Under the pieces are notes generated by a model. The model was not told where the DNA came from. It was given only the letters and a program-made list of their open reading frames with translations, and searched no databases. Source: an uncultured Thermoplasmata archaeon (lineage in GTDB: Archaea > Thermoplasmatota > Thermoplasmata > Halarchaeoplasmatales > Halarchaeoplasmataceae). From it: 15,087 nucleotides of DNA. The translations under genes were made by a program, and so were the position numbers. The stretch's first letter is position 1, and the number at the start of each line of letters is the position of its first letter. The DNA lies in the NCBI GenBank assembly GCA_964399335.1, contig CAYNQI010000025.1:1-15087 (forward strand). Direction: 5' to 3'. Below are positions 1,177-14,807 of this stretch, in pieces.

Positions 1177-1416
1177 TTACTTCTTCCTGGAGGCTTCGTT
1201 CATCTTCATCTGTAGTTGATTGATCTTTGTTTCGTAGTCGTATATTTTATCTTGGATCTTCTTAGCTCTCTTTTCGTTTCCCACCCTTTCTGCTTCATTC
1301 CTTTTATTTTTCAAATCAGTTATTTTAGCATGTAGTTTTGTCATCTTCTCTTGATATTTTTCTTTATTCTTCTCGTGAGAGCCCTTAGTCTTGTCCTTTT
1401 TTATTGAAACCATCAT
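1177..1416 (-). CDS. Small Lys-rich coiled-coil hypothetical protein (79 aa)
   Basis: GGTGAT Shine-Dalgarno-like motif directly before ATGATG (the second ATG, at 1413, may be the start); helical K/E-rich sequence; fills the gap between two real genes. Confidence 0.7.
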   Translation of the reverse strand: MMVSIKKDKTKGSHEKNKEKYQEKMTKLHAKITDLKNKRNEAERVGNEKRAKKIQDKIYDYETKINQLQMKMNEASRKK

Positions 1417-1522
1417 ATCACCCGATAATAAGTATCGTAGAAGAGCTATAAGTATTTATCGTATTTTTTTATTAAATTATTTAAGCATTAATTATTTATC
1501 TGTTCACGGAGTTAAAAAATTT

Positions 1523-2554
1523 ATGAGAGTGGTGATTCTCGGTGGGGGTTTCTGTGGTTCAATGGTTGCCAAGAGATTGGACAACATAGATGATCTCGAT
1601 GTAATTTTGATAGATAAGGAACCTTACTTTGAATATTACCCGTCCTTACCCAAATTGATCACCAACCCAGATCATCATGAGAAGATTATCAAGCGGTATT
1701 CCACGTTTTTAAAGGATGTTAAGATGATCACGGAAAAAGTGGTAAAGATCACTCCAGGTGATGTTTTAACAACTAAAAGAACAGTTGATTTCGATATATT
1801 GGTGATCTCTTTAGGAGCTAATTATCCGATATATTTAGATGACAAAAAGAACGTTTTTACAGTCAGTTCTGGTAAAGAAGTCAAAGAACTTTCTAAACGG
1901 ATAGAGAAAGCGAGTGATGTTCTGATAGTTGGAGGGGGTTTGATAGGTACCGAGGTTGCAGCTGAAATAGCTTCTAAGACTGAAAAGGAAGTTACTTTAG
2001 TCCATTCCCACAGACGACTCATCGAGAGAAATCCTAAGATGGCATCTTTCTTTGCTGAAAAATATCTCAGAAGTAAAGGTGTTCGATTGATATTTAACGA
2101 AAAGGTCGTTGATCGTGAAGGCAAAGAATACGTAACCAGTGAAGGTAGAAGGATCAATTCAGATGTATGTATCTGGAGTACTGGATTGAGTTTCGATAGG
2201 AGTTTATTTCGTGGTTTTGAAGATTCCTGCTTTACAGGAAAAAATACACTCAAGGTCAACGAACACCTCCATTTGATCGATCATCCTGATATCTTTGTCG
2301 GCGGAGATATAGCTGGTATGGATGAGGAGAAGACCGGTCACAATGCAGATTCACATTCTAAAGTTATAGCGGATAATGTGATCAGATCTAGCAAGAGTCT
2401 TAGTTTAAAAAGGTACAGCAATGTCAAGATCCCACTCTTCATCAGCTTGGGAGATGTGAATGGATTGATATCTTTTAATCCTTTAGCTATACCCGGTCCC
2501 GTGCCAGCTGTAGTAAAATATCTGTTAGAAAAAGGTGCTTTGTTAAGATTATGA
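1523..2554 (+). CDS. FAD/NAD(P)H-dependent oxidoreductase, AIFM2/FSP1-like / type II NADH dehydrogenase family (343 aa)
   Basis: Two Rossmann motifs (MRVVILGGGFCG; VLIVGGGLIGTEVAAE), VTLVHS after the second, and a GD motif (IFVGGDIA). Start reassigned from 1391 to ATG 1523, where the first Rossmann strand begins. Confidence 0.85.
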   Translation: MRVVILGGGFCGSMVAKRLDNIDDLDVILIDKEPYFEYYPSLPKLITNPDHHEKIIKRYSTFLKDVKMITEKVVKITPGDVLTTKRTVDFDILVISLGANYPIYLDDKKNVFTVSSGKEVKELSKRIEKASDVLIVGGGLIGTEVAAEIASKTEKEVTLVHSHRRLIERNPKMASFFAEKYLRSKGVRLIFNEKVVDREGKEYVTSEGRRINSDVCIWSTGLSFDRSLFRGFEDSCFTGKNTLKVNEHLHLIDHPDIFVGGDIAGMDEEKTGHNADSHSKVIADNVIRSSKSLSLKRYSNVKIPLFISLGDVNGLISFNPLAIPGPVPAVVKYLLEKGALLRL

Positions 2555-2555
2555 A

Positions 2556-3497
2556 TCAAATCAGGACCAGATCTACAGCATATCCAAGCATCAAGAGTAT
2601 CGAAAAAGATGCATACAGCTTGAAATTTAGTTTAGAGATATCCCTTATCTTTGACTCGTGACCGTTCATGCCTTTCAACTCCGACCAAATCTTCGGGAGT
2701 AGAACTGCATGAGATGCAAAGGCTATCAATAGTGGCCATCCTGGATTGAGCAGAAGAAGTACTACCACTAATACATTGATGAGAGCTAATAGATGTATAC
2801 CGATCAGACCGTACCTAGATCTACTAAAACCCATCCTAGCAACTAATCCCAATTTTTTACCTTTGATATCGGTTGGAAGATCTACCATCTCCCCCATCCA
2901 AACTATGAACAGCGTTCCGAAACCGGTGATCGGTGAGATCGAGAGCAAGATCGGATGGAAACCTACATTTTGACTGATACCTGCTAATAATACAGCTAAA
3001 GGTCCAAATCCGATAACAACTACAATCTCCCCCATACCCCTGTAAGCAAATTTGAAGGGTTCCGCGGTATAATATTTACTCAAAAATACCGAAATCCCTA
3101 TGATTATCCAAAGGGGTACCCAGAGTGTTCTATCTATCAAGGATGTCAATAAAATCGTTCCAGCGAGACCTACAGCGATCCCAGATCTTGCGATAAGGTA
3201 CATCTTCGGTAAAAGTTCCGGATAGTTGACGATGATACCCGACCCTCCACTGAACTCACTTTTCATTGATTTTCGGTTATCTGCCCCCTGAAGTGTATCG
3301 TATATGTCATTGTAAACGTTGGTGGTTATGTGGAGGCTGATACCTATGATGAAAACGAGTACGAAATTGATCGTTCGGAATGAATTTGAGATCGTTATCG
3401 AAACCAAGGTCCCGGATACTAAAGGCACTACGATCGCGAACAGAAACGGTGCCCTTATCATCTCTAGGTATCCTGGTTTGTTTTCTCCCTCATTCAT
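2556..3497 (-). CDS. menA: UbiA-family prenyltransferase, MenA-like (1,4-dihydroxy-2-naphthoate polyprenyltransferase)
   Basis: Multi-TM protein with NVYNDIYDTLQGAD (NDxxDxxxxxD), GGSG, YTAEPFKFAYRGMGE and EMVDLPTDIKGKK motifs typical of the MenA branch. ATG at 3497 preferred over TTG at 3518. Confidence 0.8.
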   Translation of the reverse strand: MNEGENKPGYLEMIRAPFLFAIVVPLVSGTLVSITISNSFRTINFVLVFIIGISLHITTNVYNDIYDTLQGADNRKSMKSEFSGGSGIIVNYPELLPKMYLIARSGIAVGLAGTILLTSLIDRTLWVPLWIIIGISVFLSKYYTAEPFKFAYRGMGEIVVVIGFGPLAVLLAGISQNVGFHPILLSISPITGFGTLFIVWMGEMVDLPTDIKGKKLGLVARMGFSRSRYGLIGIHLLALINVLVVVLLLLNPGWPLLIAFASHAVLLPKIWSELKGMNGHESKIRDISKLNFKLYASFSILLMLGYAVDLVLI

Positions 3498-3528
3498 AAA
3501 GAAACCTAATATATTCAACCTATTTAAA

Positions 3529-3735
3529 TCATCGAGATGAAGTCGATCTATCTAGCTCTTCCGTCATCTTCTTAACAAATTCTTCGTACTCACCTTCTTC
3601 GTAGATATCATCTTTTTTGTTGTAATCGATAGGTTTTCCAGGGAAAGGATCATCCATGGTCCTGGGATACAGGTGTAGATGCAGATGTGGAAGAGTATTA
3701 CCGTGGATCTCGTAGTTTATCTTAACAGAATTCCA
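3529..3735 (-). pseudogene. 5'-truncated HIT (histidine triad) family hydrolase remnant
   Basis: Manual translation (not in the ORF track): WNSVKINYEIHGNTLPHLHLHLYPRTMDDPFPGKPIDYNKKDDIYEEGEYEEFVKKMTEELDRSTSSR*. It contains the HxHxH triad. An in-frame TAA (3736-3738) lies directly upstream, and there is no room for the N-terminal half before the divergent gene at 3771. Confidence 0.8.
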
Positions 3736-3770
3736 TTAACCTTTAATTACTCTAGAATCATTTTCAATAG

Positions 3771-4346
3771 ATGAAATTCAATATCTTCGACCTTATCGCC
3801 CCTATATACCCCTTCTTTGAGAAAGTATTGTTTTCTGATACGCGAGAAAGGATGATCGAAGAGATGGAATTGAGTGAAGGGGATAAAGTTTTAGATGTTG
3901 GAGGTGGAACGGGTATGTTACTGGAGAAGATATTGAAAGAGCGTTCCGATGTAGATGTGTATCTGTTAGATGAATCAAAAGAGATGATGCAGAAAGCACC
4001 TTCCTCACATAATAAAGTCCGTGGAAAAGCATGTAGAACTCCCTTCGATTCTAAGTCTTTTGATATCCTACTCTGTGTGGATGCTCTTCATCATTTTGAA
4101 AACAAAGCTGGGAGTCTGAAGGAGATGATGAGAGTTCTAAAATCTGAAGGCGAGTTATTGATCCTAGAACTGGATCCACAAAGTCCTTTGACCAAATTCG
4201 TCGAGTTCGGGGAAAAACTAGTAGGGGAACAACCTTATTTCTTTGAACCTGAAGTTCTTCAAAAATTCTTTTCAAGGCGTGATTTCCAAACTTCGGTCAA
4301 AAAACTACATCCCTACGACTATATTTTAAAAGCTAAAAGATCATAA
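3771..4346 (+). CDS. Class I SAM-dependent methyltransferase, UbiE/MenG-like
   Basis: Motif I VLDVGGGTG, LLDES, PFDSKSFD, ALHH and RVLKSEG motifs. The N-terminal FDLIAPIY resembles the FDxIAxxY of UbiE/MenG. Confidence 0.8.
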   Translation: MKFNIFDLIAPIYPFFEKVLFSDTRERMIEEMELSEGDKVLDVGGGTGMLLEKILKERSDVDVYLLDESKEMMQKAPSSHNKVRGKACRTPFDSKSFDILLCVDALHHFENKAGSLKEMMRVLKSEGELLILELDPQSPLTKFVEFGEKLVGEQPYFFEPEVLQKFFSRRDFQTSVKKLHPYDYILKAKRS

Positions 4347-4544
4347 TAGCCAAGCTTTCTCGACTTGACTCTTCGGTACCCATTCTTCATCGATGAGCAC
4401 TGCTTTCTTCGTAGTAGCTTCTACGGTACCAGTTAGTATATTATTCGGAAATCCTTTTTTCTCGCCGAGCCATTCTACGACTTCGACTCCGATCTCTTCA
4501 CTCTTTCCAACATCGTTGATATCTATTTCATCGTCTCTGCTCAT
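4341..4544 (-). CDS. Small hypothetical beta-rich protein (67 aa)
   Basis: GGGGAT SD-like motif before ATG 4544; protein-like sequence (TKKAVLIDEEWVPKSQV); 6-nt convergent overlap with the methyltransferase. Confidence 0.6.
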   Translation of the reverse strand: MSRDDEIDINDVGKSEEIGVEVVEWLGEKKGFPNNILTGTVEATTKKAVLIDEEWVPKSQVEKAWLL

Positions 4545-4587
4545 GGATATCCCCATTTTTTACATGGATAAGAAACTTTTGGATAGG

Positions 4588-4654
4588 TTTTATAGAGATA
4601 TCACACTTCGAAATGTGCAAAAATTAAAATATTAGATATGCTTGATTGAGCATA
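4588..4654 (+). promoter_or_regulatory. Candidate promoter/operator region of the ECF operon
   Basis: TATA-like TTTTATAGA (4588-4596) and TTAAAATA (4624-4631); 14/16 palindrome CACACTTCGAAATGTG (4602-4617); inverted repeat TATGCT-N6-AGCATA (4637-4654); GAGGT SD before ATG 4668. Confidence 0.4.
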
Positions 4655-4667
4655 ACGAGGTAATCAG

Positions 4668-6575
4668 ATGCGTTATAATAGATTAAAAAATTTAGCAGTG
4701 TTTTCCATTGTCTTAGTGATGTTGATATCGGTGTTCACAGCCGGTTGTTTAGAAGAAGATGATACTGATGACGATGATGCACTAATCACTATCAATGGAC
4801 AAAATTTTGACCTAGAGGACCTAGAAGATATGGATACAGTAGAAGGTACAGCAAGATATCAAAATAGATTCTATAACTGGAACGAAAAAGCGGAATACAA
4901 AGGGGTAGCTTTGGGTACCCTAGTTCCGGATATGGAAACAAGTGATGTTCTGGAAGTTACTGCTTCAGATGGATTTTCACAGGAATTTTCCTATAGACAG
5001 ATCTTCCCATCTGAGACGAACATGGAGATCCAGGGGGAGATAATACTAGCCTACGTCAGTGACGGGATATCTGTACCCGAATGGGAAGATGGTCCCATGA
5101 TAGCTGTACTCCCTCCTGATGAAGATTTCAGTAACGATGATTTAAACATGACTAGGTCTTTAGACTCGCGATTCGATTCTCAGAGCTCTGCAGGATCCTT
5201 ATGGGTTAAAAATGTAGAGGAAATAACGGTGAACGAAGACGTTTATAGTGATACTGAAATAGGTCTTACTCTTGAAGGGGCAACTGTACATGATTATTCT
5301 TTCGAAGAATTGAGGAACATGGATTCCATCCAGGGAGAAGGGACGAGGATACGGTCGACAGCAAATGTTAGAGGACCTAATACTTACAGAGGGATTTATC
5401 TCACAGATCTAATTTCCAACATCTACAGTGGGTCGGAATATACCCTTCAGGTTGAGGCAAGAGACGGTTACACAATGACTTATCCTAGAGAACAGGTAGA
5501 AGGCGATGTACCTGTTTTAGACGAAGATTATAAAGAGACAGACATAGATGCTGATTTTGAAGTCATACTGGCATATGAAGAGGACGGCGATCCCGTACCG
5601 GATTGGGAAGACGGACCTCGTATTGCATTTTTAAACGAAGAGGGCCATCTCAGTGAAGCAGGTCTATGGGCGAAAATGGTAAGATATATTCGAGTTTTAC
5701 CAGAACAAGAAGATTGGACACTCGAGTTGAAAAAAGGATCTGAAACAGTTGATATAAGCAAGCAGTATTTTGAAAGTGCAGCCAATTGTGAATTCCATAG
5801 AGCTGAGTATGAGGAGGAAGGTGATGTTTATGCAGGTGTAACTCTCTGGGAAATAGTGGCAGCTGTTGATGGAGGAGATCCCCCTGATGGTCACTATATG
5901 TACAATACCGTGTTGGCTGAATTGGGGTATGATGTTGTAGTAGAAGCAGGAGATGGATTCTCCGCAACATTAACATCTCAACAGATCGCCAGGAACGATA
6001 GCATAATCCTTGCAAATGAGCTGAACGGAGAACCTCTTCCTGAAGGAGAAGCTCCATTGAGGTTGGTAGGTGAAGACCTACCTGGAGAAAAAAGCGTTAG
6101 GAATATTGTTAAGATCGAACTCACAGATCTTCCCGACGAGAGCGAGATCCCGGATTGGTCATTGACCCTCAATGGTACTTTAGTCAGGGAATACGATGCC
6201 ATGGTATTCGGTTCTTTGATAGGATGTGGGGTACATACCGAAGAATTCAATGCTGATGAGGGTACCTATGAAGGTATACCTCTTTGGATCCTTATCGCTG
6301 CTGTTGATGACGGGGAGACCTTGAGCCACTGGTCATTGAATGAGACTTTGGTCGAACGTGGTTACGAAGTTCAGGTTATCGCTGAAGACGGTTACAGCTA
6401 CACATTCGATATAGATGACGTGGCCTTCAACGACACCATGATATTAGCCTCTCGGTTGAATGGTGAACCATTAGATGAGAACGATTCACCACTACGACTG
6501 GTTGGTGAAGGTTTGTCGGGTGAGCAGAGTGTTAGAAATATCATTGAAATAAGACTCGTCGGCCTAGAATTATGA
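4668..6575 (+). CDS. Acidic lipoprotein with four tandem molybdopterin-oxidoreductase-like (sulfite-oxidase/Oxidored_molyb-like) domains
   Basis: Signal peptide plus lipobox TAGC (Cys27). Four repeats (about aa 39-188, 198-344, 349-486, 496-632) of Y-x-G-[VI]-x-L ... V-x-A-x-DG-[FY] ... ILA ... [ND]G ... GP/P-L-R ... [WS]-[VA]-[KR]-x-[VI], matching the Oxidored_molyb C-terminal pattern. Confidence 0.75.
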   Translation: MRYNRLKNLAVFSIVLVMLISVFTAGCLEEDDTDDDDALITINGQNFDLEDLEDMDTVEGTARYQNRFYNWNEKAEYKGVALGTLVPDMETSDVLEVTASDGFSQEFSYRQIFPSETNMEIQGEIILAYVSDGISVPEWEDGPMIAVLPPDEDFSNDDLNMTRSLDSRFDSQSSAGSLWVKNVEEITVNEDVYSDTEIGLTLEGATVHDYSFEELRNMDSIQGEGTRIRSTANVRGPNTYRGIYLTDLISNIYSGSEYTLQVEARDGYTMTYPREQVEGDVPVLDEDYKETDIDADFEVILAYEEDGDPVPDWEDGPRIAFLNEEGHLSEAGLWAKMVRYIRVLPEQEDWTLELKKGSETVDISKQYFESAANCEFHRAEYEEEGDVYAGVTLWEIVAAVDGGDPPDGHYMYNTVLAELGYDVVVEAGDGFSATLTSQQIARNDSIILANELNGEPLPEGEAPLRLVGEDLPGEKSVRNIVKIELTDLPDESEIPDWSLTLNGTLVREYDAMVFGSLIGCGVHTEEFNADEGTYEGIPLWILIAAVDDGETLSHWSLNETLVERGYEVQVIAEDGYSYTFDIDDVAFNDTMILASRLNGEPLDENDSPLRLVGEGLSGEQSVRNIIEIRLVGLEL

Positions 6576-8056
6576 TAAATAAAAAGCTAACTCTGTTGAT
6601 AGTCATCGTGATCATGCTCTCTCTCTTCACCGTAGGGTGTACTGAGGAGCCGGAGTACGCCCTCGAGGTGTCAGGAGGAATAGTACTAGAGGAATCCGAT
6701 GATCATATACGTATCCGCTCCATATCACCGGATACGGAGGTAGTGGTACAGGGTTTCCAGGGCACTATAGAGCTCACGAACTCCCATCTCGATCCTGTGG
6801 TAGAAGGTGTAGAGGGGTATGAGATGGATAAGACTTCCATAAATATGGATATCGATGATAGGTCTGAAAAAACCATAACCATAGATACACCTGAAAAGAC
6901 CGACTTCGAATTCGCGGTCATCGGTGATACCCAGGGCATGAATCACATATTCAAAGATGCAGTTGACGATATGGAGGAAATCGAGTTTTTGATCCATACC
7001 GGAGACTTGACACCTCATTCACAGGTAGATGAATATCATGCAGTTATAGAAGTCATGAACGATGCTGGTTTTCCAGTTTATCCAACTATCGGAAACCACG
7101 ACAACAGGTTCAACGGTACGGAGATATACGAAGAGTTGATAGGGCCAACAGAGTATTCCTTCGTTTACTCGGACTATAACTTCATATTCTTGGATACATC
7201 AGAGCTTTCGTTGACTGAAGACCAGATAGACTGGATCGACACACAGGTGTTAGAGGATAAACAGAACGTTATCGTAACCCATTCCCCATACTACGACCCC
7301 TTCGGAGGGGATCATACTCTTGATCCCGAGTCCGATGCGATGCTTGAACAGTACCTCTTAGATGGTTCAATAGATGTTTTCATGGCCGGCCATATACATG
7401 CTTATCATGAGGATGTTTCACACGGGATGCAGCGATTGATCACCGGTGGTGGCGGTGGATCGCTTGTAGATGGGGTACATCATTACACTCACGTCACCGC
7501 AGACAGCACCGGTTTGACCTTCGAGAAAGTACCTATCGATACACCGGAACAGAACATATTTGAGATATCGGTGGAAAGAGGTGAAGAAAAAGAGGACATC
7601 ACCTACGAGAGGTTGCTGCAGATCATGAAGCAGGAGGGTGTATCCGGGATGTCTTCCTTCCAGAACCAGTTCGGGAATCAAAGAGGTGAAGCCTACTACA
7701 GCGGAGTTAAGATCAGTACTATCATCGAGAAAGTAGGCGGAATGGATGAGGATGATATCCTTGTTGTTGAATCCATCGATGGTCATGAACAGGAATTCGG
7801 TTATCTTAACGTGTATCCGGACGAATACTTCTTATCTGAACAGGGAGAGTTCATCCTGGCTCTGACTTATAACAATCAGACCATCGACGAATGGAACGAC
7901 GGGCCCAGGGCGGTGTTCATGCCTGACGACGGATATTATACCAACCAGAACTGTGAGAACACATCCTATGAAGGACAGGGATGGAATGAATACGATTCTG
8001 CAGGTGCAAGATGGGTAAAATATGTAAGTTCATTCACGGTGGTGGAAAGTGGATAG
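6572..8056 (+). CDS. Lipoprotein: calcineurin-like metallophosphoesterase fused to a C-terminal Oxidored_molyb-like domain
   Basis: Lipobox TVGC (Cys23); phosphoesterase motifs GDTQG, HTGD, GNHD, VTH, GHIH. The C-terminal domain (QNQFGN..YSGVKI..SIDGHEQEF..FILA..WNDGP..SAGARWVKYV) aligns by eye with domain 1 of the upstream protein. ATGA overlap with the upstream stop. Confidence 0.8.
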   Translation: MINKKLTLLIVIVIMLSLFTVGCTEEPEYALEVSGGIVLEESDDHIRIRSISPDTEVVVQGFQGTIELTNSHLDPVVEGVEGYEMDKTSINMDIDDRSEKTITIDTPEKTDFEFAVIGDTQGMNHIFKDAVDDMEEIEFLIHTGDLTPHSQVDEYHAVIEVMNDAGFPVYPTIGNHDNRFNGTEIYEELIGPTEYSFVYSDYNFIFLDTSELSLTEDQIDWIDTQVLEDKQNVIVTHSPYYDPFGGDHTLDPESDAMLEQYLLDGSIDVFMAGHIHAYHEDVSHGMQRLITGGGGGSLVDGVHHYTHVTADSTGLTFEKVPIDTPEQNIFEISVERGEEKEDITYERLLQIMKQEGVSGMSSFQNQFGNQRGEAYYSGVKISTIIEKVGGMDEDDILVVESIDGHEQEFGYLNVYPDEYFLSEQGEFILALTYNNQTIDEWNDGPRAVFMPDDGYYTNQNCENTSYEGQGWNEYDSAGARWVKYVSSFTVVESG

Positions 8057-9107
8057 GAAATATTTCTTGTCAACTAAAGACCTAGTCACTATAGCTATCC
8101 TCTCCGCTCTAGGCGGAGGTCTATCAGTCTACGTTGGTTACTTGGGTAATCTGGTCAATAGAGTGGTTGGAGTACCCTTCGGTGCAGGTCAGTTCATGGC
8201 AGGTTTACACGTTATATGGATCGTTTTGGCGGTAGGCATAACAAAAAAGAAAGGTGTAGGAACCGCTACCGGTCTGTTGAAGGGCGTTGTAGAACTATTT
8301 TTAGGAGGTACACATGGAGTTGTGATAGTAGTAGTTTCCCTTGTTCAGGGTTTGTTGGTCGATGCAGTTCTTTTCAAAGATTCTACTAAAGAGAATAGAG
8401 GATTGATACCATACTGTTTTGCAGGTGGTATCTCTGCGGCATCTAACGTATTTATCTTTCAAGCATTCTTTTTTGCAGGAGTCCCGATAGTTTTGATATC
8501 TATGCTAGGTATGTTAGCATTTGCCTCTGGCATCATATTTGGAGGCTATGTCAGTCTTCAGATGATGGATTCTTTGGAACAAGGGGGACTCATATACAGT
8601 TCTAGAAATGAAAAGAAAGATACGGATAAGCCAGTTTACATCAGATACGGTAGTGTGATCGTTACTGTGATATTTCTTATCTCTTTCACAGTCGGAGGAG
8701 TGTATTATTTTCATAACGTTTACGAACCACCTGGTTCAGAGTCTATAAGCATAATTGGTGAAGTGGATAACGAATATGAGTTCGTATATGATGATTTTCA
8801 AGATCAAGAGGTAGTTGTATTTGCGGAACTCGAAGGATCGGTGACTTACGAACCACCTAGAAATTATACAGGTATACCTTTGAACGTGATCTTAAGCCAT
8901 GCAGAACCTCGGGATGGAGCCACCAAGGTAAGAGTTATAGCCACAGATGGTTATGACCGGGAATTCGATCTAGAGAGTGTGGTGAACGACGATGAAGTTA
9001 TCATCTCTTTTGATGATGGTGAATATAGGATAGTGGTGGATTCAAGAAAAGAAGGTTACGACGGCTCAGATTGGGTAAGAGATATAAGTAGGATAGAAGT
9101 TTCTTAG
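8049..9107 (+). CDS. ECF transporter S component (YkoE-like) fused via an extra TM helix to an Oxidored_molyb-like domain
   Basis: N-terminal ~175 aa of Gly-rich TM helices starting KDLVTIAILSA, then a basic linker, one more TM (YGSVIVTVIFLISFTVGGVYYF), and an acidic domain YTGIPL..VIATDGYDREF..WVRDISRIEV. GTG start overlaps the upstream stop by 8 nt; adjacent to ECF A and T genes. Confidence 0.75.
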   Translation: MDRKYFLSTKDLVTIAILSALGGGLSVYVGYLGNLVNRVVGVPFGAGQFMAGLHVIWIVLAVGITKKKGVGTATGLLKGVVELFLGGTHGVVIVVVSLVQGLLVDAVLFKDSTKENRGLIPYCFAGGISAASNVFIFQAFFFAGVPIVLISMLGMLAFASGIIFGGYVSLQMMDSLEQGGLIYSSRNEKKDTDKPVYIRYGSVIVTVIFLISFTVGGVYYFHNVYEPPGSESISIIGEVDNEYEFVYDDFQDQEVVVFAELEGSVTYEPPRNYTGIPLNVILSHAEPRDGATKVRVIATDGYDREFDLESVVNDDEVIISFDDGEYRIVVDSRKEGYDGSDWVRDISRIEVS

Positions 9108-9114
9108 TGGAATC

Positions 9115-10560
9115 ATGTTAGAAGTTCAGGGACTGTCTGTGACATACCCCAGCAAAGACAAACCTTCGATACAAAATATTTCCTTTTCGTTGAAACAGGG
9201 AGAGTTTGTTTGGCTTGCAGGGGAAAGTGCATCTGGAAAATCCACTCTCATGAACTGTATCTGTGGTTTCATACCTCAGATAATACCTGCTGATTTAAAA
9301 GGGTCCATCATATTTCACGGAAAAAAGAACCTAGAGCCACTCCAGCTCTCAAGACACATAACCATGGTTCATCAGGATCCAGAAACACAGTTCTGCACAG
9401 AGACTGTAGAGGATGAGATAGCTTTTGGATTAGAAAACAGATGTTTATCTAGAAGGAAGATAGATAAAAGGATAGAAACGACTTTAAGGGATCTTAACTG
9501 CAGTGAATTAAGATATCGAGAGTTACGTACTCTTTCTGGTGGTGAGAAACAGAAGATAGCCATCGCTTCTATGCTGGTTTTGAATCCGAAGGTTTTGATA
9601 CTGGACGAACCCACTTCCAACCTTGACCCTATATCTATGAATGAGGTTCTAAACGCTATAGAAAACGTACGGAGGAAAAGTCATGATCTGACTATAATCC
9701 TGGCCGAACATCGAATAGGCGACTTGGTAGAACAGATCGACCGGGTACTGAAACTAGAGGATGGAGGCTTATCCAGAGATTTTCAAGATCTAGAGCAAAA
9801 AAATTCCATAATGGATTACTCTTATCCAGAGTACTCTCGAGAGGGTGTGAAGGATGGTGAAACGTTACTGAAAATTAAAAATTTGGATCATACTTTAGAT
9901 GGTAAAAAAATACTCAAGGATATAGATTTAAAAGTTAGAAAGGGGGAGATAATCGCTTTGATGGGTAGGAACGGGTCAGGCAAAACCACTCTAGTAAAAC
10001 TCATATCAGCTCTATCGGAAGTCCATGAAGGAAAGATCAAGATATTTGATCGGGTCATGGACAGATCCAATAAAGTACAGCCTTATGAACTAGGGAAGAG
10101 GATAGGATATGTTTTCCAGAATCCAAATCACCAGATATTCGAGAACTCTTTAGAAGAGGAGATCAAGTTCGCTACTAAAAACTTCTCTAAAGGAGGAGCT
10201 AAGGCTAAGAAATGGCTGAAAAAGATAACCACTGAAGAAAACTTAGATGAAAAAACTCATCCACACACCCTGAGCTTCGGTCAAAAGAGAAGGTTGAATA
10301 TCTATTCATCTTCCCCTCACGACCCAGAATTCGTGGTGATAGATGAACCCTTCTCCGGACAGGATCATCAAAATGCTCTCATGATAGCAAAGATAATGAA
10401 TGATCTATGGAGGGAGGGAAAAACATTGATGATCGTCACTCACGATCTCGAATTTGCCAAAAAATTCTGCACAAGAGCTGTGGTCTTGAAAGATGGAGGG
10501 ATCGTTTACGATGGAGAGCCAGATAGTTTGAAAAGTGTGAGTGGTGAAAATGAAAAATAA
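9115..10560 (+). CDS. ECF transporter tandem (double) ATPase, YkoD/EcfA-A'-like
   Basis: Two NBDs: GESASGKS / QDPETQF / LSGGEKQ / LDEPT and GRNGSGKT / FQNP / LSFGQKR / IDEPF. Confidence 0.9.
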   Translation: MLEVQGLSVTYPSKDKPSIQNISFSLKQGEFVWLAGESASGKSTLMNCICGFIPQIIPADLKGSIIFHGKKNLEPLQLSRHITMVHQDPETQFCTETVEDEIAFGLENRCLSRRKIDKRIETTLRDLNCSELRYRELRTLSGGEKQKIAIASMLVLNPKVLILDEPTSNLDPISMNEVLNAIENVRRKSHDLTIILAEHRIGDLVEQIDRVLKLEDGGLSRDFQDLEQKNSIMDYSYPEYSREGVKDGETLLKIKNLDHTLDGKKILKDIDLKVRKGEIIALMGRNGSGKTTLVKLISALSEVHEGKIKIFDRVMDRSNKVQPYELGKRIGYVFQNPNHQIFENSLEEEIKFATKNFSKGGAKAKKWLKKITTEENLDEKTHPHTLSFGQKRRLNIYSSSPHDPEFVVIDEPFSGQDHQNALMIAKIMNDLWREGKTLMIVTHDLEFAKKFCTRAVVLKDGGIVYDGEPDSLKSVSGENEK

Positions 10561-11269
10561 GATCAACCCCGTTGTTAAACTCATAGCACTGGTTATCGGT
10601 GCAGTGATGGTTTTCCTCATCGATTCAGTCATGATCCTAATTTCTTTTGTTCTATTATTGGTACTCCTTAAAGTGATCTACAGTGTCAAAGGACGTTTTG
10701 GCAGAGGTATCGTTTTTTTGGTCGTAGCTATATTTTTAGCCCAAGTGATATTCGTACCCGAGGGGGAGGTTATACTAGATCTATGGTTATTCCATATCAC
10801 TTCGGGAAGCCTTATAAACGGCATTTTGATATCTGGTAGATTCTTTTCTCTTATCACTATGTCTTGGATCTTTGTAGGTACGACAGAACCTAGAGATCTC
10901 TCGTCTGCTTTATCCAATCTAGGTATTCCATATCGCTACAGTTTTTTACTGATAATCGCAATGAGGTTCGCACCGATATTCCAGTTCGAGTTGTCCAACG
11001 TGCAGCAAGCCCAGAAGATAAGGGGTTTGAAAATCGATAAGAATGTGAGGGGATTGATCCGATCAGTGAGGTTCACGACCATGCCTCTGTTATACTCAGC
11101 CATGTCGAAAGTGAACACTTTGGCTTCCTCCATGGAAGGTAGAGGTTTCGGAATGTACGACAAAAAAACATTTTTACATCCTATAAGATTCACATTATGG
11201 GATGCGGTGTTGATCATAGCACTTTTGGTCTTTAGTTTTAATGTATATTATCTAAACCTTCTTCTTTGA
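10541..11269 (+). CDS. ECF transporter transmembrane T component (EcfT/CbiQ-like)
   Basis: TM N-terminus, then RFAP, AQKIRG and SMEGRGF coupling-helix (x-R-G) motifs; overlaps the ATPase stop. The start may be ATG 10550. Confidence 0.9.
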   Translation: MVKMKNKINPVVKLIALVIGAVMVFLIDSVMILISFVLLLVLLKVIYSVKGRFGRGIVFLVVAIFLAQVIFVPEGEVILDLWLFHITSGSLINGILISGRFFSLITMSWIFVGTTEPRDLSSALSNLGIPYRYSFLLIIAMRFAPIFQFELSNVQQAQKIRGLKIDKNVRGLIRSVRFTTMPLLYSAMSKVNTLASSMEGRGFGMYDKKTFLHPIRFTLWDAVLIIALLVFSFNVYYLNLLL

Positions 11270-11915
11270 TCTTGTCGCCCCACTTTTTCATAAGTTCTCC
11301 TTGAGAACTGTATTTTGAATAATGGAGTAGCGACTCAACTAACTTTTCAGTGATATCTACTCTTGGTTTCGATACTTTTGAGAAATAGATATCTAAAAAG
11401 AACTCTACCTGATTGAATTTTTCATCAGTGAAAGCAGGTCTCATACGGAGTACCGATGTACACATATCTCCGAGGTCTCTTAGAAAATCACCGGTCTGTG
11501 CCTCTTCGAAGTCTATCCCATAGATTTTGTCATCAAATAATATGAAATTGGCTAAGATACAATCCCCCTTTCGTTTGTCAAACCCGAATGACGTGTGAAA
11601 TCTAGCTAACCACTCCGCTATACCGGAGAGGATTTTATCCACGTTTTCACGTGAATCAAAGATCTTTTTGCAGTTAGTTCCTGAGATATATTCGAGTATC
11701 AATGTGTCATCTTTGATATCGATGAGCTCAGGCACTCGGAGGCCTTTGTTTCTACACTCTTTGAGAAGAGTAAGTTCGGTTTTTAGATTATCCCGAAATT
11801 TTGGATCGAATTTTTTTACAATTAAATAATTTCCCTGGATTTCAACTTTATAGACCTTATTCTTTTTACTATCTAGAACCTGGACAACTTTCCAGCCATC
11901 AGGACCTGTCATCAT
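11238..11915 (-). CDS. Protein-kinase-fold phosphotransferase (RIO1/Bud32/APH-like)
   Basis: LIVKKF (catalytic Lys), TE helix-C Glu, LILEYI hinge, KGDCILANF catalytic loop (D...N), GIDFEE Mg-binding motif. Confidence 0.75.
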   Translation of the reverse strand: MMTGPDGWKVVQVLDSKKNKVYKVEIQGNYLIVKKFDPKFRDNLKTELTLLKECRNKGLRVPELIDIKDDTLILEYISGTNCKKIFDSRENVDKILSGIAEWLARFHTSFGFDKRKGDCILANFILFDDKIYGIDFEEAQTGDFLRDLGDMCTSVLRMRPAFTDEKFNQVEFFLDIYFSKVSKPRVDITEKLVESLLHYSKYSSQGELMKKWGDKIKEEGLDNIH

Positions 11916-12059
11916 ACTTCGTTATGTGGAATCAAGTATATGTATGTTTATCGTAAAATTGTTCAGGGGACTAGCCAACGATATGACTCATCCCCTTAAT
12001 TCGAAGGGAAGTATATTCCTCTGGGAATGGTTAAATAATTACAAGTGACTTCTAGAAAG

Positions 12060-12464
12060 ATGAACGACTCTAAAGATGGATCACCGATACTCACCCGCTG
12101 CGGATATAGATGTGACCTATGCCTGGCATACAAAGAAAATATCAAGAGCTTTGAAGATAGGGAACGGATCAGCGATGGTTGGTTCAAGTACTTTGGATTT
12201 CGTATCAGTCCTGAAAACATAAAATGTGACGGATGTTTGACTTCGGATGAAGAAAAACCCCATCTTAACGATGATCCTTGTCCCGTCAGAAAATGTGTCT
12301 TAGAGAAGGGATTCGAGAACTGTTCCCGATGTGAAGATTATATCTGTGAAAAGCTCGATAGTCGCATGGTAGATAGAAGTGATCTTGGATCGATTTCTGA
12401 AAAGGATTACAGATGTTTCGTGAAACCTTACGAAAGTCGGGAAAGGCTTGAAAAACTGAGATAG
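12060..12464 (+). CDS. Cys-rich DUF3795-like protein
   Basis: CGYRCDLC, CDGC, CPVRKC and CSRCEDYIC pattern characteristic of DUF3795. ATG 12060 preferred over GTG 12045. Confidence 0.75.
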   Translation: MNDSKDGSPILTRCGYRCDLCLAYKENIKSFEDRERISDGWFKYFGFRISPENIKCDGCLTSDEEKPHLNDDPCPVRKCVLEKGFENCSRCEDYICEKLDSRMVDRSDLGSISEKDYRCFVKPYESRERLEKLR

Positions 12465-13080: not shown

Positions 13081-13845
13081 TCAGTAGTGCCCCAATAGCC
13101 CTCTCTTTTTTGCCACCCTTTCCAGATAACTGAAGATCAATATACCTGCAAACAGATAGGCGAATGAATTTATGAGCAATATTGAGTAGTCAAAAACAGA
13201 GAAATCCAAGAGTGACATACCACCTACCAGCATCCGGTTTATCAAAATATTTCCCCATGATATAGGTGTGATGTAGATTATGTAGTGGTTCGTAATAGAT
13301 GGTAGCACTAAGAACAGTATGAACATGAATTGAAGTATTTGGTTACCCGCTTGGACTTTTTTGAAGACCAAAGAAAGACCCCCCATGATATAACCGATAC
13401 CATATATCGAAAGGAGTGCAAGTCCAACTAGAACTACAACTCCTGGATTCAAGATCAAGTATTCTCCGGTCACAACCATCATCACCCCCAGGAATGCAGC
13501 GAAAAGCATGAATTGGAAGATAAATGATGCTATAACTCGATAAGCTGATATCCTCCTGAAACTAGAAGGAGTGAGGTAAAGTTGTTCCAGTGTCCCGTCT
13601 CTAGCTTCTTGAAGTAATCCCCATGACATCTCACTGTAAGCCATGGCGGCGAAAATCCACATGGCGAATCCAACGATAGTTCCTTGTAGGGTTTCAGTTC
13701 CAGCTTCGAAGCTCCTCAGTCCAAAAAACACCAGCATGAAAAGTATGAATATGCCGCCCATACTCATTAAAGTGTTAAGAAAGTACCTTCTCAGTTCGAT
13801 GAAATGTTTTTTTACGATGGAGTAAAATATGATGTGCTCTTTCAT
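13081..13845 (-). CDS. ABC-2 type exporter permease
   Basis: About six TM helices, EARDGTLEQLYLTP motif, 4-nt overlap with the upstream ATPase. Confidence 0.9.
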   Translation of the reverse strand: MKEHIIFYSIVKKHFIELRRYFLNTLMSMGGIFILFMLVFFGLRSFEAGTETLQGTIVGFAMWIFAAMAYSEMSWGLLQEARDGTLEQLYLTPSSFRRISAYRVIASFIFQFMLFAAFLGVMMVVTGEYLILNPGVVVLVGLALLSIYGIGYIMGGLSLVFKKVQAGNQILQFMFILFLVLPSITNHYIIYITPISWGNILINRMLVGGMSLLDFSVFDYSILLINSFAYLFAGILIFSYLERVAKKRGLLGHY

Positions 13846-14807
13846 CTTACCACCCCGTTCTCCTCGATTATGTTCATGAAGATCTCTTCCATGTGAGTAT
13901 CTAGATTCTTGACCTTTTCCAACTCGATAGATCGTTCTTTAAGCTGATCAACGATCTTGTAGAATGAATTGGAATCGTTCAATACGACTTTCATGGTGGT
14001 TTTCCCGTTGATGTACCTCATGTCGGTAACGTTGTGTTCGTTTCTAATTTTCTGGAGTTGATGCTTTCCTTTTAGGATAAATTCGTAAAGGTGAACGTTG
14101 AAGACATTTCTCAGATTTTCTACAAGATCATCAGCTAAAACTTTACCTTTGTTGATGATTATAACTCTCTCACATACTTCCTCTACTACGTTCATATCAT
14201 GGCTGCTGAGTAGTATGGTTTTACCTTCTTCTTCTGCCAGTTTCAATATAAAACGTCTCAACTCCTTTGAAGTCTTGACATCCAAACCTAACGTGGGTTC
14301 ATCGAGCAGTAGAAAATCAGTCCCTCTGACGATAGCGCAGCTCAAGGCCAATTTCTGCTGCATACCACGTGATAATTTCCTAGCGGGAATATTTTCTTTT
14401 TCGACAAGATCGAACCGTTCCATCAGACTTTTGATCTCGGGTTCGACTTCTTTTTTACTCCTTCCGTGCAGCCCGGCGAAGAATTCTAGGTTCTCCCTGG
14501 TCGTCAACCGCCAGTAGATGTTCCTGTTACCTTCCAGAACAGCACTAGTGTTTATTACAGCTTTTCTGGTCTGTTTAACTGCATCGATACCGAATATGTT
14601 TATATCTCCTGCAGTAGGTTCAACCAGTCCACATATGCATTTGATGGTCGTTGTTTTTCCAGCACCGTTGGGTCCCAGGAATCCTACTACCTCACCTTCA
14701 TCCACGGAGAAGGAAACCCCATCTACCGCCTTGGTTGATTCTCCTCTCCATTGCGGATATGTTTTCTCTAGGTTACTGACTTTCAATGCATAGGTTATAG
14801 AACTCAC
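13842..14807 (-). CDS. ABC exporter ATP-binding protein (DrrA/NatA-like)
   Basis: GPNGAGKTT, LSRGMQQK, LLDEPTLGLD and SSH motifs plus a C-terminal regulatory extension; GTG start. Confidence 0.92.
   Translation of the reverse strand: MSSITYALKVSNLEKTYPQWRGESTKAVDGVSFSVDEGEVVGFLGPNGAGKTTTIKCICGLVEPTAGDINIFGIDAVKQTRKAVINTSAVLEGNRNIYWRLTTRENLEFFAGLHGRSKKEVEPEIKSLMERFDLVEKENIPARKLSRGMQQKLALSCAIVRGTDFLLLDEPTLGLDVKTSKELRRFILKLAEEEGKTILLSSHDMNVVEEVCERVIIINKGKVLADDLVENLRNVFNVHLYEFILKGKHQLQKIRNEHNVTDMRYINGKTTMKVVLNDSNSFYKIVDQLKERSIELEKVKNLDTHMEEIFMNIIEENGVVR

Follow-up and report, generated by a model that had tools for sequence, protein, structure and literature searches.

What does a transporter import when all three exported proteins encoded with it carry copies of a fold best known from sulfite oxidases? 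The question is raised by a 15,087-nucleotide contig, C25 (CAYNQI010000025.1 of GenBank assembly GCA_964399335.1; 'the window' below means this whole stretch), from a 1.57-Mb, 80%-complete metagenome-assembled genome (MAG) of an uncultured archaeon, which its homologues place among halophilic Thermoplasmata, as a relative of 'Candidatus Saliniplasma' and 'Haladaptatiplasma'. Positions 4668-11269 encode an energy-coupling factor (ECF) transporter together with six domains resembling sulfite oxidase (SUOX). An original prediction, made from the sequence, read the locus as an uptake route for molybdopterin or tungstopterin, and folds, gene profile and bacterial riboswitches now support that reading. 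From comparative genomics we favour, with a probability of about 0.68, a six-gene salvage system for the molybdenum or tungsten pterin cofactor (Moco/Wco, a metal-bearing molybdopterin or a close derivative). The salvage reading is supported by four independent lines: a genome profile complementary to Moco biosynthesis, loss of the biosynthetic island, riboswitch control in bacteria, and the absence of a thiamine link combined with altered substrate-contacting residues.

The cassette core consists of five tightly coupled plus-strand open reading frames (ORFs), whose coordinates bear out the predicted co-oriented arrangement, with a single 7-nt gap between two of them and the other junctions overlapping by 4, 8 and 20 nt. 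Domain families were called with Pfam and NCBIfam. The first gene (4668..6575) encodes a Sec-type lipoprotein with four SUOX-fold domains, recognized by PF00174, a lipobox and structure matches; the second (6572..8056) encodes another Sec-type lipoprotein, which combines a calcineurin-like metallophosphoesterase (Metallophos, residues ~114-293) with a C-terminal domain, D5 (~7532-8053), seen as a weak PF00174 tail. An S component of the YkoE family (PF09819; 8049..9107) ends in a sixth domain, D6 (~8727-9104), again with a weak PF00174 match. It is followed by a fused tandem ECF ATPase, A-A' (9115..10560), with two ABC_tran domains, which scores 324.9 bits against ECF_ATPase_1 (cut-off 315) and 315.8 bits against ECF_ATPase_2 (cut-off 330), and by a CbiQ-family T component (PF02361, 120 bits; 10541..11269). 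A PF09819 S component, an ECF-signature ATPase pair and a CbiQ-type T component are encoded together, as in group I ECF systems. Convergent to these genes, a small kinase of the APH/RIO fold (11238..11915, minus strand) overlaps the 3' end of the T gene by 32 nt.

All six predicted SUOX-like segments share an aligned core, Y-x-G-[VI]-x-L ... D-G-[YFH] ... P-x-R ... [WS]-V-[KR]; D2, D3, D4 and D6 were assigned by structure search and D1 and D5 by sequence alignment alone. PF00174 matched the three exported proteins at 72.8, 22.6 and 17.2 bits, of which only the first exceeds the 24-bit cut-off. The lipoprotein profile reaches sulfite oxidases and the pterin-binding protein PruR weakly, and a phmmer search of the single domain D2 against PDB sequences returned chance matches only. 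Since these sequence-level matches are weak, the fold evidence comes from structure searches with AlphaFold models (predicted local distance difference test, pLDDT, 84 for the four-domain lipoprotein and 81 for the S component). D3 (~5706-6143) superposed on chicken sulfite oxidase (3hbg/1sox) with Z 16.7 and a root-mean-square deviation (rmsd) of 2.3 A over 127 residues, and D4 (~6144-6572) matched SorA (2blf, Z 14.8) and YedY (Z 11.2), making both nearest to true sulfite-oxidase Moco domains. D2 (~5250-5705) was nearest to PruR (Z 14.3) and, like D1 (~4779-5243), is PruR-like and Cys-free, while D6 resembles both sulfite oxidases and PruR. Comparisons with PruR gave Foldseek TM-scores of 0.63-0.73 to 7kom, 7kp2, 7kos and 7rkb and VIA Z scores of 13.9-15.0. 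All modelled domains are predicted to adopt the SUOX/PruR pterin-binding fold, the outcome that the original prediction had named as its first check.

PruR itself is an exported, truncated, Cys-less SUOX fold that holds its pterin between Tyr104 and Trp160, with a hydrogen bond from Asn102 (PMC11194511). Its N-D-Y falls on the D-G-Y motif of the cassette domains in a weak HMMER alignment (E above 1); this motif and a Trp ~10 residues from the domain end, matched to PruR by position only, are invariant in D1, D2 and D6. The description of the domains as largely Cys-less is correct only in part: D1, D2 and D6 contain no Cys, and four of the six domains are without the candidate Mo-ligand Cys, but D3 and D4 carry a conserved C-x-x-H. 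In D3, C374 is kept in 27/29 homologues and H377 in 28/29, and the D4 motif, which contains C520, is conserved in 17/23. Both Cys residues precede Y-x-G-V by the expected spacing, and D3 and D4 also retain P-L-R-[LI]-V, a motif found in true Moco domains. When the lipoprotein profile was aligned by hhalign with the true SUOX enzyme P0185, D3 aligned from Y-x-G-V onward with 95.7% probability, stopping short of the Cys. P0185, encoded elsewhere (L014 9621-10655, minus strand) in a genome with no Moco biosynthesis genes, joins a true SUOX-family domain (PF00174, E 1e-42, with Cys) to a membrane region of several helices at its C terminus.

The three exported proteins are highly acidic (isoelectric point ~4.1-4.6), and the two lipoproteins begin with signal peptides (MRYNRLKN... 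and MINKKLT...) that contain lipoboxes FTAGC and FTVGC and no twin arginine, as originally noted. Domains exported by Sec leave the cell cofactor-free, and this, together with the candidate metal-ligand Cys of D3 and D4, would suit a transporter working in the opposite direction, one that delivers Moco to apo-SUOX domains, which would then work as surface oxidoreductases. A Listeria ECF system reportedly supplies flavin outside the cell in this manner, and the tested bacterial carriers of the cassette make Moco. We nevertheless consider export very improbable: only two of the six domains have this Cys, the cassette contains no redox partner genes, and most archaeal carriers cannot make the cofactor (below) and would have nothing to export.

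The S component is modelled as a six-helix part that continues through a basic linker into a seventh helix (residues 196-224) and then into D6, which faces outward. It is a homologue of YkoE (5edl), with a profile E-value of 5.3e-9 and a Foldseek TM-score of 0.77 (rmsd 2.5 A, 22% identity). In YkoE, thiamine is contacted by Tyr46, Trp49, Glu77, Gln95 and Asp131 (PMC5037267). The pair that binds the aminopyrimidine is kept in the cassette family, Glu77 as E82 (50/50) and Gln95 as Q100 (49/50), whereas the other three contacts are lost: Trp49 is replaced by H54 (50/50), Tyr46 by A51, and Asp131 lies in an insertion without counterpart. Pterins also bear an aminopyrimidine ring, and retention of the Glu/Gln pair beside altered thiamine-specific residues would fit a change of cargo to a pterin. 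The homology to YkoE and the shared S-AA'-T layout had suggested a salvage system for thiamine or hydroxymethylpyrimidine (HMP) of the YkoEDC type, in which the phosphoesterase would strip thiamine pyrophosphate (TPP) outside and a ThiK-like kinase would act inside, ThiK being a member of the APH kinase family. The lost contacts and the pterin fold of the capture domains already speak against this alternative, which the original prediction had also named, and the genome profile and riboswitches described below do so further.

We compared the distribution of the cassette with that of Moco biosynthesis in two samples, an evenly drawn set of 400 genomes of the class and a closer set of 43 good Thermoplasmata genomes, all with tungsten AOR; three genomes of family f11 (G100, G214 and G303) were counted in class-wide tallies only. 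The S fusion occurs in 55/400 genomes, mostly in families f1, which includes the window's source, and f4, and every f1 and f4 genome has several tungsten-type AOR genes (42/42 and 46/46). Class-wide, MoaC is present in 9/55 carriers of the S fusion versus 226/345 non-carriers. In the closer set MoeA is found in 5/25 carriers, the same five that have MoaC, and in 17/18 non-carriers, so that 20 of the 25 carriers lack both. In the one non-carrier without MoeA, G040, wtpA lies on a contig similar to the beginning of the biosynthetic island described below, and this contig may have been cut short. Cassette and Moco biosynthesis are complementary, and the profiling proposed with the original prediction came out in its favour: with exceptions given below, the genomes that have Mo/W enzymes and lack moaA, moaC or moeA are those with the cassette.

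This either-or switch recurs within genera g5, g13, g2, g50 and g58 and within families f24 and f2, so the pattern is not the effect of one clade. Three closed chromosomes (G146, G153 and G318) contain the cassette and AOR and lack MoaC, MoeA and MoaE; in the two genomes tested for them, closed G318 and draft G002, MoaA and MoaB are absent as well. Within the window's family, WtpA was found in 0/10 cassette-only genomes and in 10/12 genomes that make Moco. A MobA-like gene is present in 18/18 f4 genomes, including those without any upstream step; the matches are full length, with E-values of 1e-19 to 1e-32, and fall below the curated cut-off. Such retention is the pattern expected if a metal-bearing molybdopterin enters the pathway from outside. 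ThiC, by contrast, is untied to the cassette (24/25 carriers and 17/18 non-carriers, 41/43 overall), and ThiE shows no correlation with it.

The source genome itself retains a remnant of the lost pathway. In a congener (G283), an island (L017 7295-13837) carries wtpA-wtpB-wtpC followed by moeA-moaB-moaC-moaE-moaA-metG. A contig of the source MAG (C160; L011 1-2045) instead has moaB (105-608) overlapping moaE (601-996) by 8 nt, with metG beginning at 1039; both moaB and moaE are intact, and the first 56 bases of the contig match the DNA directly upstream of wtpA in the congener. Given this gene order and the 56-base match, moaC, moaA and wtpABC-moeA were deleted rather than left unassembled. 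We had considered that the missing moa genes reflect an assembly gap in an 80%-complete MAG, and rejected this because the contig shows real deletions. Four AOR genes remain in the same MAG.

The whole layout of capture protein, phosphoesterase, S fusion, A-A' and T component is conserved well beyond this genome. It recurs in Thermoplasmatota, in Asgard archaea (Thor-, Hermod- and Heimdallarchaeota) and in anaerobic Bacillota, namely Syntrophomonas, Syntrophaceticus, Pelotomaculum, Dethiobacteria and the cultured Thermovorax subterraneus DSM 21563. Of 18 bacterial loci, six (L070, L073, L075, L076, L087 and L089) have the Moco/Wco riboswitch RF01055 at the cassette's 5' end, on the operon strand and directly ahead of the first gene, scoring 55.6-69 bits (gathering score 36); upstream sequence is incomplete at many of the 12 others that were scanned. 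No TPP riboswitch was found in the 18 bacterial loci or in the window, where Rfam models searched at E up to 1 gave no RNA element at all. The homologous bacterial operons are tied to Moco/Wco riboswitches and not to TPP, B12 or Co/Ni elements; consistent ties to thiamin, B12 or Co/Ni were an outcome that would have refuted the original prediction. With ThiC and ThiE present regardless of the cassette, three of five thiamine contacts gone, and riboswitch counts of 0/18 for TPP versus 6/18 for Moco/Wco, thiamine or HMP salvage is the least probable of the explanations that we weighed.

Two of the bacterial loci showed further features. Pelotomaculum has another Moco/Wco riboswitch immediately past the cassette kinase gene (L087 10276-10396, plus strand), which presumably serves the operon that comes after it. 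The SUOX-like capture protein of Thermovorax (L089 2936-5164) is anchored by three S-layer homology domains and not by lipid; the same locus encodes a phosphoesterase of the purple-acid-phosphatase type and a single 799-aa fusion of A, A' and T.

Riboswitch control and the loss of wtpA would also be compatible with an importer of tungstate or molybdate, in which the ECF system replaces WtpABC and the SUOX-like domains bind the oxyanion instead of a pterin. Oxyanion transporters are commonly controlled by Moco/Wco riboswitches (the RF01055 regulon), WtpA and the cassette show complementary distributions in the window's family, and the bacterial carriers tested make their own molybdopterin. Yet 20 good cassette-only genomes, three of them closed, have neither MoaC nor MoeA, and most lack MoaE too; imported metal would be pointless there, as it would find no pterin to join. 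The fold is moreover a pterin-binding fold with its putative pterin-stacking residues kept, and a phosphoesterase and a kinase would be superfluous for an oxyanion. We therefore regard a metal importer as unlikely, although it is the strongest of the competing explanations. Slightly less likely still is an importer of another pterin or aminopyrimidine (a folate or methanopterin precursor, neopterin, monapterin or a deazapurine) with only an indirect link to Moco. PruR binds small pterins other than Moco in a short cleft (PMC11194511), and the S component retains of the YkoE contacts only the Glu and Gln that face the aminopyrimidine. Set against this, the riboswitch is specific to Moco/Wco, the losses that track the cassette are moaC, moeA and wtpA, and D3 and D4, with their Cys and His kept, are closer to true Moco domains than to PruR.

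Both accessory enzymes, the phosphoesterase and the kinase, are conserved alongside the cassette in archaeal and bacterial loci alike. Among 80 related loci compared, the metallophosphoesterase gene holds its position in 61. The kinase gene follows the T gene in 40/52 Thermoplasmatota loci, and the remaining 12 are on contigs that break off short of the T gene or at most ~300 nt beyond it. In the window's family the kinase is present in 13/13 cassette carriers, always adjoining the T gene, and in 0/10 non-carriers; in a second carrier family, carriers have a cassette-linked copy and a paralogue, and non-carriers the paralogue only. Five bacterial loci likewise have a kinase homologue after the T gene, co-directional with it in four. 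Judged by this gene conservation, the convergent APH-like kinase is the sixth component of the system, and the predicted extent of 4668-11269, correct for the five transporter-side genes, leaves out the kinase gene at 11238-11915. Searches against PDB sequences found no relative of the kinase at E up to 0.1, and its assignment as Bud32 was rejected, as the NCBIfam matches are far below cut-off. In the operon of a near-identical relative (L019 2599-9876), protein identity to the window varies from 98% for the S component, 94% for A-A', 84% for the T component and 81% for the four-domain lipoprotein to 72% for the phosphoesterase and 49% for the kinase; this unevenness suggests recombination inside the cassette.

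Combined, these parts suggest a salvage route in which the lipid-anchored, Sec-exported SUOX/PruR-fold domains would capture the cofactor, its dinucleotide or degraded forms outside the cell. The anchored metallophosphoesterase, with a pterin-fold domain of its own, would strip off phosphate or nucleotide, and the domain tethered to the S component would pass the ligand to the YkoE-like membrane part. Import would be powered by the dedicated A-A'-T module, and the APH-like kinase may restore the phosphate inside the cell. Gene content, domain folds, conservation of the cassette, its complementarity with Moco biosynthesis and riboswitch control in bacteria are observed here, whereas we infer what the cargo is, which way it moves, how it passes between domains, and the dephosphorylate-import-rephosphorylate logic.

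Several observations weigh against Moco/Wco salvage. The genomes compared are related and so are not independent observations, and nine archaeal carriers have both routes. All 5/5 bacterial carriers tested have MoaC, so the cassette is not needed there for auxotrophy. Families f9, f16, f17 and f21 have AOR but MoaC in only 2/21 genomes, and in five of their members (G010 and G091 of f9, G023 and G035 of f17, and G055 of f21) AOR is present and MoaC, MoeA and the S fusion are absent; the S-component profile found no relative in f9 and f21, and in f17 it matched only a true SUOX enzyme. The tested f9, f17 and f21 genomes thus appear to be cofactor auxotrophs for which another route must exist. 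Some cassette-only genomes, including the source MAG, keep moaE or moaB without moaC or moeA, which import of ready-made cofactor leaves unexplained; these genes could mark decay in progress, or a precursor such as cyclic pyranopterin monophosphate (cPMP) could also be used. At the level of the domains, the Cys of D3 and D4 is a candidate for the Mo-ligand Cys, judged from spacing and superposition range and not from a residue-level overlay, and the PruR-type cleft has been described as too short for the whole of Moco (PMC11194511).

Comparison with characterized systems shows what the cassette shares and what it adds. YkoEDC, the group I ECF importer for thiamine and HMP of Bacillus subtilis (5EDL; PMC5037267), likewise has a dedicated set of S, A-A' and T with a PF09819 fold. 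Unlike YkoEDC, the cassette extends its S component by a seventh helix and by a SUOX-like domain tethered outside, adds capture lipoproteins, a phosphoesterase and a kinase, and has bacterial homologues under Moco/Wco and not TPP riboswitches, with no link to thiamine genes. PruR of Agrobacterium, Vibrio and Klebsiella (7KOU, 7KOM, 7KP2 and 7RKB; PMC11194511) is a periplasmic protein of ~140 residues with an exported, truncated SUOX fold and no Mo-ligand Cys, as in the PruR-like cassette domains; but PruR is a single-domain sensor that controls the c-di-GMP enzyme DcpA, whereas in the cassette the fold occurs in several copies, on lipid anchors and in fusions with a phosphoesterase and with a transporter subunit. 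No GGDEF or EAL gene was found in the window or the related loci. With the sulfite oxidase family (1SOX, 2BLF and YedY/MsrP, 1XDQ; PF00174), D3 and D4 share the superposition on the Moco-binding domain and the P-L-R-[LI]-V motif, and they carry a conserved Cys that is a candidate for the Mo ligand. The cassette proteins differ in lacking a dimerization or heme domain, in export by Sec and not Tat, in domain size (~140 residues versus ~230 or more) and in a context of transport and not redox chemistry. A parallel is also offered by the riboswitch-controlled ECF vitamin importers (ThiT, RibU, FolT, CbrT and QueT/QrtT), in which, as here, a cognate riboswitch precedes an importer whose occurrence across genomes complements that of de novo biosynthesis. 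External binding domains, which the cassette has, are not normally part of ECF systems.

The genes on either side of the cassette include a possible quinone-related cluster upstream (1391-4346), comprising an FAD-dependent pyridine-nucleotide-disulfide oxidoreductase (1391-2554, plus strand), a MenA-like UbiA prenyltransferase (2556-3518, minus strand) and a UbiE-like methyltransferase (3771-4346, plus strand). An 80-aa ORF at 4393-4635 is probably not a gene, being of low complexity, without a family and without a counterpart in the 80 related loci. Downstream lie a DUF3795 protein (12045-12464, plus strand) and an ABC-2-type exporter pair on the minus strand, formed by a family-less ORF, the presumed permease (13081-13845), and a DrrA-like ATPase (13842-14807).

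The common view is that most organisms have to make Moco themselves, and nematodes are, to our knowledge, the only case of its uptake. A review describes Moco uptake as impossible in most organisms (PMC9026282), a catalogue of riboswitch-controlled coenzyme uptake systems lists no Mo/W-pterin importer (PMC3766115), and the open-access literature that we searched describes no prokaryotic Moco importer. The cassette would thus probably be the first route of Mo/W pterin cofactor uptake in a prokaryote, built from an ECF importer, tethered capture domains, a phosphoesterase outside and a molybdopterin (dephospho-Moco) kinase inside, a composite claim that we hold somewhat less firmly than salvage as such. 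The idea is directly testable in Thermovorax subterraneus DSM 21563, which is cultured and carries a riboswitch-controlled cassette.

If salvage is confirmed, Mo/W-pterin would join the list of cross-fed cofactors, and the cassette would provide candidate proteins that bind and stabilize a very labile one and would predict a new enzyme activity, the phosphorylation of a dephospho-pterin. The survival of genomes that have several tungsten AOR genes but no moa and moe genes would be explained, and the metabolic potential of MAGs without Moco biosynthesis would have to be read differently. Many anaerobic archaea, including Thermoplasmatota and perhaps the cassette-bearing Asgard lineages, would then depend, as Moco/Wco auxotrophs, on cofactor that neighbouring organisms release.

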